Positions 6,001 to 9,000 of a DNA stretch of 64,000 nt are shown one piece after another (the first letter of the stretch is position 1; each line of letters begins with the position of its first letter). This DNA comes from a virus. Taxonomy: Duplodnaviria; Heunggongvirae; Uroviricota; Caudoviricetes. The stretch lies in IMG/VR virus record IMGVR_UViG_3300032007_000006, positions 249,360 through 313,359 of that record; one strand, written 5' to 3'. Position numbers: made by a program.

Positions 6001-9000
6001 GAGATTGACAGGATGAAGAGGAAAGAATATAGTCTTTAAAAGATTTCATTTGTTGAACAAGAGACAAAATATTTACGTCAGGAGAGCGCATGACTGAAGA
6101 ACTTTCAAAAATGTCCAATGAAGAACTGATTCAGCTTTATCATGAATCCAAGGCCAAGTCTGTAGTATTCAATCTGTCGCAGCAGGCCAAGAAAATTCTG
6201 CTGAACTCCTGCTATGGCGCAATTGGCAACGCCTACTTTCTTCACAATGATGTTCGCATTGCTCGTGCAATCACGCTTGCTGGACAGGCCATGATAAACA
6301 AGTCGGCCAAGGAAACCAATGACTGGTTGAATGGCGTGCTGAAGAACAAAAAGGCTGAAGATTATCGTGTGTATTCGGATACGGATAGTATCGACGGCAA
6401 CAGCATATTATATATCAATAATCAACAGTTATCAGTAAGTAAGTTCTTTGAAACTTCAACGGGAAATATAGAATGTACTTCTACAGACAAATGTATTAAG
6501 AAATTAACATCTGATTATTTTATTGATACATACAACAATGGTTGTGTCGAAAAAACAAAAGTGATTTATGTCATGAAGCATAGGGTAAAAAAACGTATGT
6601 ATAAGTTAAAAGTTGAAGGAACTGAAATTGTTGTTACAGAAGATCATTCAATTATGTTTGAACGGAATGGAAATATAGTTGAAGGAAGTGTCAAAGATTT
6701 GCAGGCTGGTGACAAAATTATTGTAAATGAAAATAACATTTGATGAATTTTATGTTCAATGGAATAGTTGTTCTCCATGTGGATTTTCAAAACAACCAAA
6801 AAGGAGAAAATGTGTCTACAATAATAAAAAACCATATTTTATATCAACAAAATATGGTTCAAAACTAAAATACACTAATTTATATAAAATGTATTTGCAT
6901 ACGGACTGTATGCCTATGCCAGCATTTAAACGATGCATATATTATTTTATGAGCGTTCATGATTTTAAAGATTGGAAAAGACGATTCGATTGGATTAAAA
7001 ATCATTATTCAGATAAAGCGATTACCGAAGATAAAATGATGGCATATTATGGTAAAGAAGAAGGATTAAAACGATGGAAAGCATATTGCGAAAAGCAATC
7101 TTATACTAATACTTTTGAATATAAACGCAAAAAATACGGAATGTCAAAGAAAGAGTTTTTAGAATATAATAAGTTACGAGCAACTACATTGGAAAATATG
7201 ATTTCCAAATATGGTGTTGAGGAAGGAACAGAACGATTTAATAGTTATGTTGAGAAGCAAAAAGATGCAGGTTGTTCATTGAAATATTTTCAAGAAAAAT
7301 ATGGTGAAATCGAAGGAGAAAAGTATTATAAAGATGTGAATAAACGCAAATCTATGACTTTGGATAATTTTATTCGAATATATGGAGAAGAATTAGGAAA
7401 ACAAAAATATCTAGAATGTAAAGAAAAGCATAGAAATCTAATGGTCAATAAGTTTTCTAATATTTCGTTGGAACTGTTTGATGCCATTCAAGCATCTCTT
7501 CCAGAGAAAATACAGAAAAATGTATATTACCATTTTAATGAATACTATATTATAACTCAAAATAATAACACATATTATTTTGATTTTTATATTGATAAAT
7601 TAAAATATGTGATTGAGTTTTATGGCGATTATTGGCATCTAAATCCATTGAAGTATAAGTCAGATGAACTTGTTTCATATAAAGGAAAAGAACAAGTTCT
7701 TCCGAAAGAAAAATGGGTGGAGGATAAAAAACGACTTGATGAGATAACAAATGAAGGATATACTATTCAAGTTGTGTGGGAATCTGACTATAAAAACAAC
7801 AAGGATAAGATTATTGACACATTGGTGTCAGATATTATCCAAAGATGGAGAAAATTAGATGATAAAAACAGATTGTTGGGAAGTTGAAGACCTTGGCGTC
7901 ATTGAAAATGATGTTTATGATCTTGAAACAGAAAATCACATGTTTTTTGCCAATAACATTCTTGTTCATAACTCCAACTACTTTGACCTGAATGATGCCT
8001 TGAACGTCTTTCTAAAGATAAAGCCAGATGCAGACAGACAGGCCAAGGCCGACTTTCTGGACAAGTTCTGTCAGAAGATGGAGTCCGACTGTCTTACTCC
8101 ATTGTTTGACAAGGTGAAGCAGGAGATCAATGGAGAAGAGGACGGTGGACTGCATATGGACAGAGAGGCCATTGCAGTTCCAAATGACCATACAGGAAAC
8201 TGCGGCATATGGATTGCAAAGAAGCGGTACTATCTCCTGCTGGATGACATGGAAGGATTTAGATACACTGCAAACAACGGGGAGCCGCATGAAAAGATAA
8301 TGGGACTCTTTTCGGTGACTTCTTCCTGTCCAGAGTTTGTCAAGCCGTGGTTTAATAAGGTTCTGCATGACTTGACGGCCGAAGGCGTTGAACGTGCAAG
8401 AAAGACCATCGCCGAGTTTAAGGAGATGTTCTTTGCAAAGCCAATTTCAGAGATTTCATTTCAGAAAGGCGTTTCGGACATTGAAAAGTATCTGAATCCA
8501 GAGACAAATCTTCCTTGGGAAGGCGAATGGTTTGATGCAGAATCAGGAAAGACCAGAAATGGAGGCTGTCCCATCAATGCCAAGGCCGCAATGTATCACA
8601 ACGCTTTGGTAGATGAACTGAAGCTGGAAAAGAAGTATCAAAAGATCAAGTCTGGCGACAAGATGAAGTACGCATATCTGAAAGAAAATCCAAAGCACTG
8701 GACAGTCATTGGCTTCATTGATGACATTCCAGAAGAATTTGGTTTAAAGGAATATGTAGACGTGCAGACGCACTATGAAAAGATATTCTACAAGCCAGTT
8801 GAAGACGTATTCACAGCCTGTGGTCTAGACATAGTTCCGAAGGTGGACATAGCTTCGTTCTTCTAAGAAAGAAGTTAAATATTAACGCTCAACAAATGAT
8901 GGAATGAAGATGCTGTCTATTATCGCCATGATCGTTTTTGCCATATGGGCCTTGGTGATGTCGGCCGTCAGCTATGGCCTGTACAATGACAATAAACGAC

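Follow-up and report, generated by a model that had tools for sequence, protein, structure and literature searches.

A predicted split Ser1/Ser+1 intein, itself interrupted by a Vsr-like endonuclease gene, in the family B DNA polymerase of a ruminant-gut giant phage

When motif C of a phage DNA polymerase is divided between open reading frames (ORFs) in different frames, with an endonuclease gene lying between the halves, is the polymerase rebuilt by protein splicing, is it read as a single precursor by frameshifting, is the division an artefact, or do the parts stay unspliced? The question is raised by positions 6090-8866 of a 64,000-nucleotide stretch of DNA (the window), which corresponds to bases 249360-313359 of the 352,419-bp IMG/VR virus record IMGVR_UViG_3300032007_000006, a record that CheckV rates as 99% complete. 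The source of the window is a T4-like giant phage of the ruminant gut, with a genome of 352 kb, and 16 studies have the stretch in their bovine or goat gut metagenomes. We conclude, with high confidence, that the locus is gp43B of an Aes123-type split family B polymerase, in which a class-1 Ser1/Ser+1 intein interrupts motif C and is itself broken by a Vsr-like homing endonuclease gene (HEG). Coordinates below are window positions, except that those beginning with G000:C1 are whole-genome positions.

The locus consists of three plus-strand ORFs, and translation reproduces the ORFs, coordinates, frames, overlaps and fragment lengths originally predicted. The first ORF, gp43B1-IntN (6090-6743, 217 aa), reads ...RVYSDTD/SIDGNS... 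(the slash marking the predicted splice site) and ends ...IIVNENNI at a stop codon; the second, the endonuclease ORF (6727-7887, 386 aa), lies in the +1 frame relative to the first and overlaps it by 17 nt; the third, IntC-gp43B2 (7859-8866, 335 aa), lies in the +1 frame relative to the endonuclease ORF, overlaps it by 29 nt and reads MIKTDCWEV...ILVHN/SNYF. The polymerase segment of the first ORF (N-extein, 6090-6386, 99 aa) comprises the second fingers helix, motif B (KKILLNSCYG) and motif C as far as YSDTD; it matches Pfam DNA_pol_B at profile positions 142-232 and aligns with RB69 gp43 from residue 528 and with T4 gp43 residues 525-622. The polymerase segment of the third ORF (C-extein, 7973-8866, 297 aa) supplies the Ser+1 (SNYF) that completes motif C, followed by the KKRY motif and the thumb; it aligns with RB69 gp43 residues 646-791 (E = 3e-13) and is 95% identical to the corresponding part of an intein-less 396-aa gp43B protein (P0146). 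Between the exteins lie the intein N-fragment (IntN, 6387-6743, 118 aa plus stop), with Ser1 in SIDGNS (block A), the NX motif VMKHRVKK and block B TEDHS, and the intein C-fragment (IntC, 7859-7972, 38 aa, net charge -8), with blocks F/G and the end ...DVYDLETENHMFFANNILVHN. The locus has the layout of a fractured gene: a same-strand endonuclease ORF stands between intein halves, and the exteins rejoin to a colinear gp43B.

The limits of the intein and nuclease cassette, as given by codon positions, are 6387-7972, and the AT-rich tract noted in the original prediction coincides with them: the GC fraction is 0.285 within the cassette, compared with 0.441 in the N-extein and 0.445 in the C-extein. 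A natural empty allele has the same limits. Contigs from independent bovine-gut assemblies (X5 and X7) join position 6382 to position 7971, with 'CG' between; the in-frame junction reads GAT ACC GAC TCC AAC (D T D S N), so that 6387-7972, no more and no less, is missing. Because a naturally occurring insert-free allele has equal boundaries, the predicted intein limits are supported. Compared with the window, the X5 contig shows 0 differences over 6000-6382 and 15 substitutions over 7971-8796, clustered at 8014-8239; the pattern is suggestive of a recombination or co-conversion boundary and, with no baseline for the rest of the contig, is not used here as evidence. Elsewhere in the 64-kb window there is only one comparable AT-rich island, at ~23.1-26 kb. 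That island (~23100-26000) falls within a 1437-aa minus-strand ORF (21295-25608) and has a GC minimum of 0.27 (1586-nt window at 23951).

The predicted intein belongs to a known family. The best PDB match of the IntN-bearing ORF is 9hth_A, the Aes123 PolB1 intein (E = 1.9e-17), and IntC matches residues 133-170 of the same chain (E = 1.3e-6), with further matches, in order of decreasing strength, to the PolB16 intein (E = 0.003), to the NrdJ-1 intein (E = 0.012) and, marginally, to NEQ528 (E = 0.86). The Pfam Intein_splicing score of the gp43B1-IntN ORF is 31.6 bits, under the cut-off of 35.8, because the ORF holds the N half only. An alignment of the window locus with Aes123, Campylobacter phage F379 (CP21 type), Vibrio phage VPALA and three metagenomic loci (L003-L005) shows conservation of the DTD/S insertion point, Ser1, the K-H NX motif, block B T-E-D-H, the terminal HN and Ser+1. 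The NX motif, a His preceded by Lys or Arg that is specific to Cys-independent inteins (PMC10189870), is present in 7 of 7 aligned loci, VMKHRVKK here corresponding to IMKHTVKK in Aes123. Judged by these residues (S1, TEDHS and ...VHN/S are all present), the intein is of class 1 and of the Ser1/Ser+1, or oxyester, subgroup. It is naturally split at the typical position, the endonuclease loop: IntN ends in a stop codon and IntC has its own start codon. Cysteine independence, as originally proposed, holds for the junctions, neither of which uses a cysteine; it does not extend to the intein as a whole, which has four non-catalytic cysteines (IntN positions 30, 36 and 53; IntC position 6).

The question of whether the frame changes are real bears on two readings that had been raised with the original prediction, and both came out negative. 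According to the first, the locus truly encodes an uninterrupted intein that has its endonuclease domain in the same frame, and indel errors in the AT-rich tract have split it during sequencing or assembly. The junctions do lie in sequence of 28.5% GC, where homopolymer errors are common, and contiguous inteins do exist at the same site in close relatives (P0144 and others). However, Logan contigs over 6727-6743 and 7859-7887 reproduce both frame changes without indels: those of one independent study (X3, records 2 and 5) cover both junctions with 0 gaps and 0 differences, and those of another study, from a diverged strain (X4, records 10 and 14), cover them with 0 gaps, one junction piece having 10 substitutions and the other 6. 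In addition, many unrelated assemblies encode ~215-aa proteins that consist of the PolB segment and IntN, share 33-60% identity and terminate at the same place, and in the contigs that carry them a separate endonuclease ORF comes next, followed by an IntC-polymerase ORF. The endonuclease ORF is separate in L004 and L005, with 47-49-nt intergenic gaps that contain stops, and likewise in Aes123 and VPALA, and the contiguous relatives are 152-164-aa mini-inteins that have no nuclease domain. An artefact is, in our judgement, exceedingly improbable.

According to the second reading, programmed ribosomal frameshifting (+1 twice) yields a single gp43B1-IntN-endonuclease-IntC-gp43B2 precursor that splices in cis. 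The 17-nt and 29-nt overlaps, and the +1 displacement of each ORF relative to the one before it, are as such a reading would have them. However, the relative frames of the three ORFs are 0,1,2 in the window, 0,2,0 in Aes123, 1,1,2 in L004 and 1,2,0 in VPALA; because relative frames vary between homologous loci, there is no conserved frameshift. Moreover, the ORFs of L004 and L005 do not overlap, L003 has lost the endonuclease and still has separate IntN and IntC ORFs, the gene that follows the endonuclease in L016/L017 is not IntC-gp43B2, and the IntC-gp43B2 ORF of the window has its own ATG, preceded by 7 nt by a Shine-Dalgarno-like GGAG (7848-7851). We accordingly give frameshifting almost no weight, and take up again the reading of the locus as three separately translated genes.

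The first of the three is likewise preceded by a Shine-Dalgarno-like sequence, AGGAG at 6080-6084, and a putative promoter-like site, TTGACA-17-TATAGT (6005-6033, plus strand), lies ~55 nt 5' of the gp43B1 start; the site matches at 11 of 12 positions in a consensus scan. The neighbour upstream of gp43B1 is a divergent minus-strand ORF. A search of both strands of 5500-9500 for the T4 late promoter motif TATAAATA found no match, and scans for sigma-70-like promoters and terminators found nothing specific within the insert apart from its AT-richness.

The middle ORF encodes a protein with a helical N-terminal region of four YG-x-EG repeats, followed at the C-terminal end by a Vsr-like/EDxHD nuclease domain (residues ~242-375). 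Its product is 35% identical to the 'putative VSR endonuclease' of Aes123 (E = 2e-50) and 29-39% identical to the products of the middle ORFs of L004, L005 and VPALA; homologues in the protein database number 115. Alignment to 1vsr places D286, E297, H304 and D333 at the positions of Vsr Asp51, Phe62, His69 and Asp97, respectively, and among 54 aligned homologues H304 is invariant and each of the other three residues is kept in 90% or more. The fractured-gene family of Vsr-like nucleases is marked by a Glu where Vsr has Phe62 (Dassa et al., 2009; PMC2677866, cited here and below for its passages on broken genes). An AlphaFold model of the endonuclease (pLDDT 89.2) gave Foldseek probabilities of 0.96-0.98 with E-values of 0.2-0.35, and for the whole model against I-Bth0305I and Vsr the E-values were only 0.2-0.5; in VIA-align comparisons, used after these weak E-values, the C-terminal domain superimposes on Vsr (1cw0_A; Z = 10.5, rmsd 3.3, 115 residues aligned) and on I-Bth0305I (3r3p_A; Z = 10.4, rmsd 3.3, 97 of 97 aligned). 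A search of the genome for a paralogue of the endonuclease found none. We conclude from residues, modelled fold and homology that the middle ORF is a Vsr-like (EDxHD) homing endonuclease of predicted activity, and, by analogy with I-Bth0305I (PMC3239194), it probably cuts insert-free polymerase alleles near the DTD/S codons.

The three ORFs do not encode the whole polymerase. The gp43B1-IntN ORF starts merely ~40 residues ahead of motif B, and the remainder is encoded by gp43A (G000:C1:163947-165572, minus strand, 541 aa, PF00136), which lies ~90 kb from gp43B on the opposite strand and adjoins gp47- and gp46-like genes. The product of gp43A aligns with RB69 gp43 residues 4-426, which include the exonuclease domain and motif A, and extends ~118 aa further into the fingers; its C-terminus, ...RKADKK...ELAKRGIMI followed by a stop, is homologous to the end of Aes123 gp43A. 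The break between gp43A and gp43B, in the fingers domain, has no intein. By alignment, then, the genome has split gp43A and gp43B cistrons of the T4-like phage type, A with the exonuclease domain and motif A, and B with motifs B and C and the thumb. The original three-ORF picture of the polymerase was right as to the split at YSDTD/S and incomplete as to the third piece. Its position differs among related loci, gp43A being adjacent to B1 in L004 and fused with B1 in F379 and VPALA, and the window shows that gp43A and gp43B can be unlinked by 90 kb.

The fractured PolB is the sole recognisable replicase of the genome. PF00136 has only two matches genome-wide, gp43A and gp43B1, and a search for PolA in this genome, 99% complete by CheckV, found none; because of these three facts the phage probably needs the gp43B gene.

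According to the mechanism we propose, an intein came to interrupt motif C exactly between YSDTD and S, and a free-standing Vsr-like (EDxHD) gene then cut that intein at the canonical endonuclease-insertion loop. Three products, gp43B1-IntN, the endonuclease and IntC-gp43B2, would be made at the locus, and the distant gene would supply gp43A. IntN would associate with the acidic IntC, the two folding into a Hint domain, and oxyester trans-splicing would follow, by an N-O shift at Ser1, transesterification to Ser+1 and Asn cyclisation, yielding a gp43B of ~396 aa in which YSDTDS is intact, with the splice junction ...VYSDTD-SNYFDLNDALNVFLK. As in the split gp43 proteins described in PMC2677866, gp43B would then pair non-covalently with gp43A, which would contribute the exonuclease, motif A and the first fingers helix. 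The endonuclease would cleave empty alleles of co-infecting relatives, and repair would copy the intein and nuclease cassette into them (homing).

That the window intein trans-splices is an inference by analogy with the Aes123 PolB1 intein (PMC11923092), which occurs naturally in two pieces (AesN, 120 aa; AesC, 39 aa; structure PDB 9HTH), trans-splices in vitro and comes from PolB genes of T4-like phages of Aeromonas salmonicida. Several points weigh against our reading. The identities to the Aes123 homologue are 32% for IntN and 63% for IntC, and the purified wild-type Aes123 fragments themselves spliced in vitro with an efficiency of only ~30% (PMC11923092). The endonuclease start has only a weak and distant Shine-Dalgarno-like GGTGA, ~15 nt upstream. 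Metatranscriptome contigs of X3 span the whole stretch with 0 differences, but contigs from RNA libraries, in which DNA carry-over is possible, cannot prove transcription, strand or level. Finally, close relatives with exteins 94-95% identical to those of the window have a contiguous mini-intein or none, so that the split form is not fixed in the lineage.

The last point also speaks in favour of a third alternative, that the intein halves do not splice and are either a non-covalent docking module for gp43B1 and gp43B2 or the remains of a gene decaying in this strain: with insert-free and cis-intein alleles circulating in near-identical phages, the window allele could be a recent, poorly adapted invasion. 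There are precedents for assembly without splicing, both in the HEG-split NrdA of phage Aeh1, which is held together non-covalently by interaction domains (PMC3045599), and in the gp43A/gp43B break, which functions unspliced in related phages (PMC2677866, citing Petrov and Karam). On the other side, every residue of the class-1 oxyester pathway is present (Ser1, the NX His, the block-B Thr and His, the penultimate His, the terminal Asn and Ser+1), and split homologues with as little as 32% identity, the nuclease-less L003 among them, retain these residues. Unless spliced, motif C (YSDTDS) would hold 156 foreign residues in the only PolB of the genome. We regard a non-splicing intein as unlikely, and prefer trans-splicing.

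Relatives of the locus, which came from the protein database and include roughly 60 gp43B homologues (the B1-IntN ORF and the endonuclease, each used for a single-sequence scan of IMG/VR, gave no confirmed relatives), show the DTD/S site in several states. In addition to the empty X5 and X7 contigs, an insert-free 396-aa gp43B is found in P0146 and at the syntenic loci L013 and L014. A contiguous mini-intein at the same site (152-164 aa, no nuclease domain) is found in the 550-560-aa gp43B of P0144 and others, and at locus L015. In L003, both intein halves are intact around a 47-aa remnant of the endonuclease ORF; because L003 keeps both halves around the remnant, the split persists without the nuclease. 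We conclude that the allelic states at this site (empty, cis mini-intein, split with HEG, HEG lost) match the gene-breaking model as set out in PMC2677866; to have all the predicted states at one site, in a single phage clade, is unusually direct support for that model.

Comparison of intein and extein identities bears on how the cassette moves. The exteins of P0144 are 94-95% identical to those of the window, and its IntN is only 37% identical; the closest intein is the contiguous one of P0171, with 58% identity, in exteins that are only ~70% identical. On these comparisons, intein and extein identities are decoupled, and intein cassettes appear to be exchanged horizontally; the decoupling, like the exact boundaries of the presence/absence polymorphism, is indirect evidence for homing. 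At the protein level, comparison with P0171 places the nuclease insertion point in the loop ...DKIIV/YNKNAV/IKSENW...; the final IntN residues, NENNI and stop, seem to be encoded within the 5' end of the nuclease gene, whose last nine codons overlap the beginning of IntC. A different arrangement is seen in a 215-kb metagenomic contig (L016/L017, 2327-4741), in which gp43B1-IntN (222 aa) and a homologous endonuclease ORF (48% identity) are followed by a CTP_transf_like gene, and in which the intein halves may be unlinked.

Other genes of the genome have inteins as well. The large terminase (TerL) is also fractured, into a 371-aa ORF on the minus strand (40116-41231) and an ORF on the plus strand (3630-5003), 36 kb apart. 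The former has, in order, a long IntC-like part (...VSHN/T), a TerL ATPase segment, a contiguous Cys1/Cys+1 mini-intein, CVLIDE and a ~31-aa IntN (CLAGKETV...); the latter has a ~107-aa IntC (...VEVSN/C) followed by the remainder of TerL. From these features we predict that the TerL intein is split atypically, in the manner of AceL/GOS-TerL, and acts between genes that are not linked. A third Terminase_6N fragment is at G000:C1:10556-10675. Directly upstream of the C-terminal TerL piece is a plus-strand ORF (2451-3623, 390 aa) that has no Pfam match and matches phrog_12709 (function unknown); the syntenic relative L015 lacks it, and in L013 its position is taken by a 421-aa ORF. The 390-aa ORF is perhaps a variable or mobile insert and could encode a nuclease. 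Just upstream of the window, and with its final 266 nt at window positions 1-266, is a fractured P-loop gene (G000:C1:247180-249625; L010 1681-4126), interrupted in Walker A (GGAG/C...) by a Cys1 IntN, a 385-aa endonuclease-like ORF (weak phrog_945 match) and an IntC (...IVHN/SGKG). Further Intein_splicing matches are at G000:C1:146920-148616 (minus strand), 187033-188088 (minus strand) and 232027-233321 (plus strand). The 352-kb phage has at least six intein-bearing genes.

This genome tolerates the dispersal of gene pieces: PolB is made up of three genes, at two loci separated by 90 kb, and TerL of at least three. One may speculate that the lineage is a live snapshot of gene fracturing, near-identical phages having, at one codon, an empty site, unrelated cis mini-inteins, a split intein invaded by a nuclease or a split intein whose nuclease has decayed, and that the post-translational assembly of dispersed essential genes is lineage-wide and possibly selected; we think this rather doubtful. 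If true, such assembly would be a trait of the lineage, perhaps favoured as a recombination barrier or for timing control, rather than the chance build-up of parasites.

How does the locus compare with known systems? The closest are the Aeromonas phages Aes123 and Aes509 (JN377899, JN377902), and the GenBank annotation of JN377899 gives, in order, gp43A, gp43B1 with N-intein, VSR endonuclease, and C-intein with gp43B2. Shared with the window are the DTD/S site, Ser1/Ser+1, the K-H NX motif, a homologous Vsr-like endonuclease between the halves, the split in the endonuclease loop (120 + 39 aa compared with 118 + 38 aa here) and a gp43A/gp43B break at the homologous point of the fingers. The systems differ in that Aes123 gp43A is adjacent, whereas here it is ~90 kb away on the opposite strand; that Aes123 is a ~170-kb Aeromonas phage, whereas the window is from a 352-kb ruminant-gut phage; and that the intein here has four non-catalytic cysteines. 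Natural split Ser1/Ser+1 PolB inteins have been published and engineered: Aes123 PolB1 (the parent of CL and CLm), CP21 PolB1, LCGC14 PolB2 and GOM-OPS-1 PolB2 (PMC11923092, PMC12707363, PMC10189870). With these examples, and with the identical layout annotated in JN377899, the novelty that the original prediction implied for a Ser1/Ser+1 split intein in PolB falls away. CP21 PolB1, from a Campylobacter phage, LCGC14 PolB2 and GOM-OPS-1 PolB2 resemble the window intein in having T4-like phage PolB hosts, Ser1/Ser+1 and the NX His (PMC12707363), and the typically split published PolB inteins have an IntN of 115-120 aa and an IntC of 39-46 aa. The CP21-type locus of phage F379 aligns with the window throughout, and differs, as does VPALA, in having A and B1 fused in one ORF. 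The PolB16 OarG intein, unlike the window intein, has an atypical split, after 15 aa (PMC10189870).

The fractured genes described by Dassa et al. (2009) likewise have split intein halves that flank a free-standing HEG, in overlapping or tightly packed ORFs, and half of their endonucleases are Vsr-like. The original claim that the locus has this layout is borne out by homology to the Aes123 intein, by the Vsr/EDxHD fold and residues and by the natural insert-free allele. Of the 26 loci of that study, the passages cited name the host genes gp41, NrdJ, NrdA, IMPDH, DnaE, terminase and ligase, and the only family B polymerase breaks named there are the intein-less gp43 break and the split polymerase of Nanoarchaeum equitans. 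The latter's Neq Pol intein resembles the window intein in being naturally split, cysteine-independent and in a family B polymerase (PMC10189870, PMC2677866), and differs in being archaeal and thermophilic, with unlinked halves and no endonuclease gene. I-Bth0305I, the prototype of the EDxHD nucleases (PMC3239194; PDB 3R3P), has the same catalytic E/D/H/D, multi-repeat helical N-terminal region and nuclease fold as the window endonuclease; it differs in being encoded in a group I intron of recA, and its sequence is too dissimilar to that of the window endonuclease for phmmer to match the two. Published examples exist of the layout, of the intein family and of the nuclease family, and protein ligation already makes use of the closest relative; specific to this locus are the unlinked gp43A, the full set of allelic states in one clade and the intein-rich genome. 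Relative to the published systems, the window adds one more natural Ser1/Ser+1 split intein, which is well diverged from that of Aes123, might be orthogonal to the inteins CL/CLm and LCGC14, and can be compared with natural relatives that have a cis-splicing intein or an empty site.

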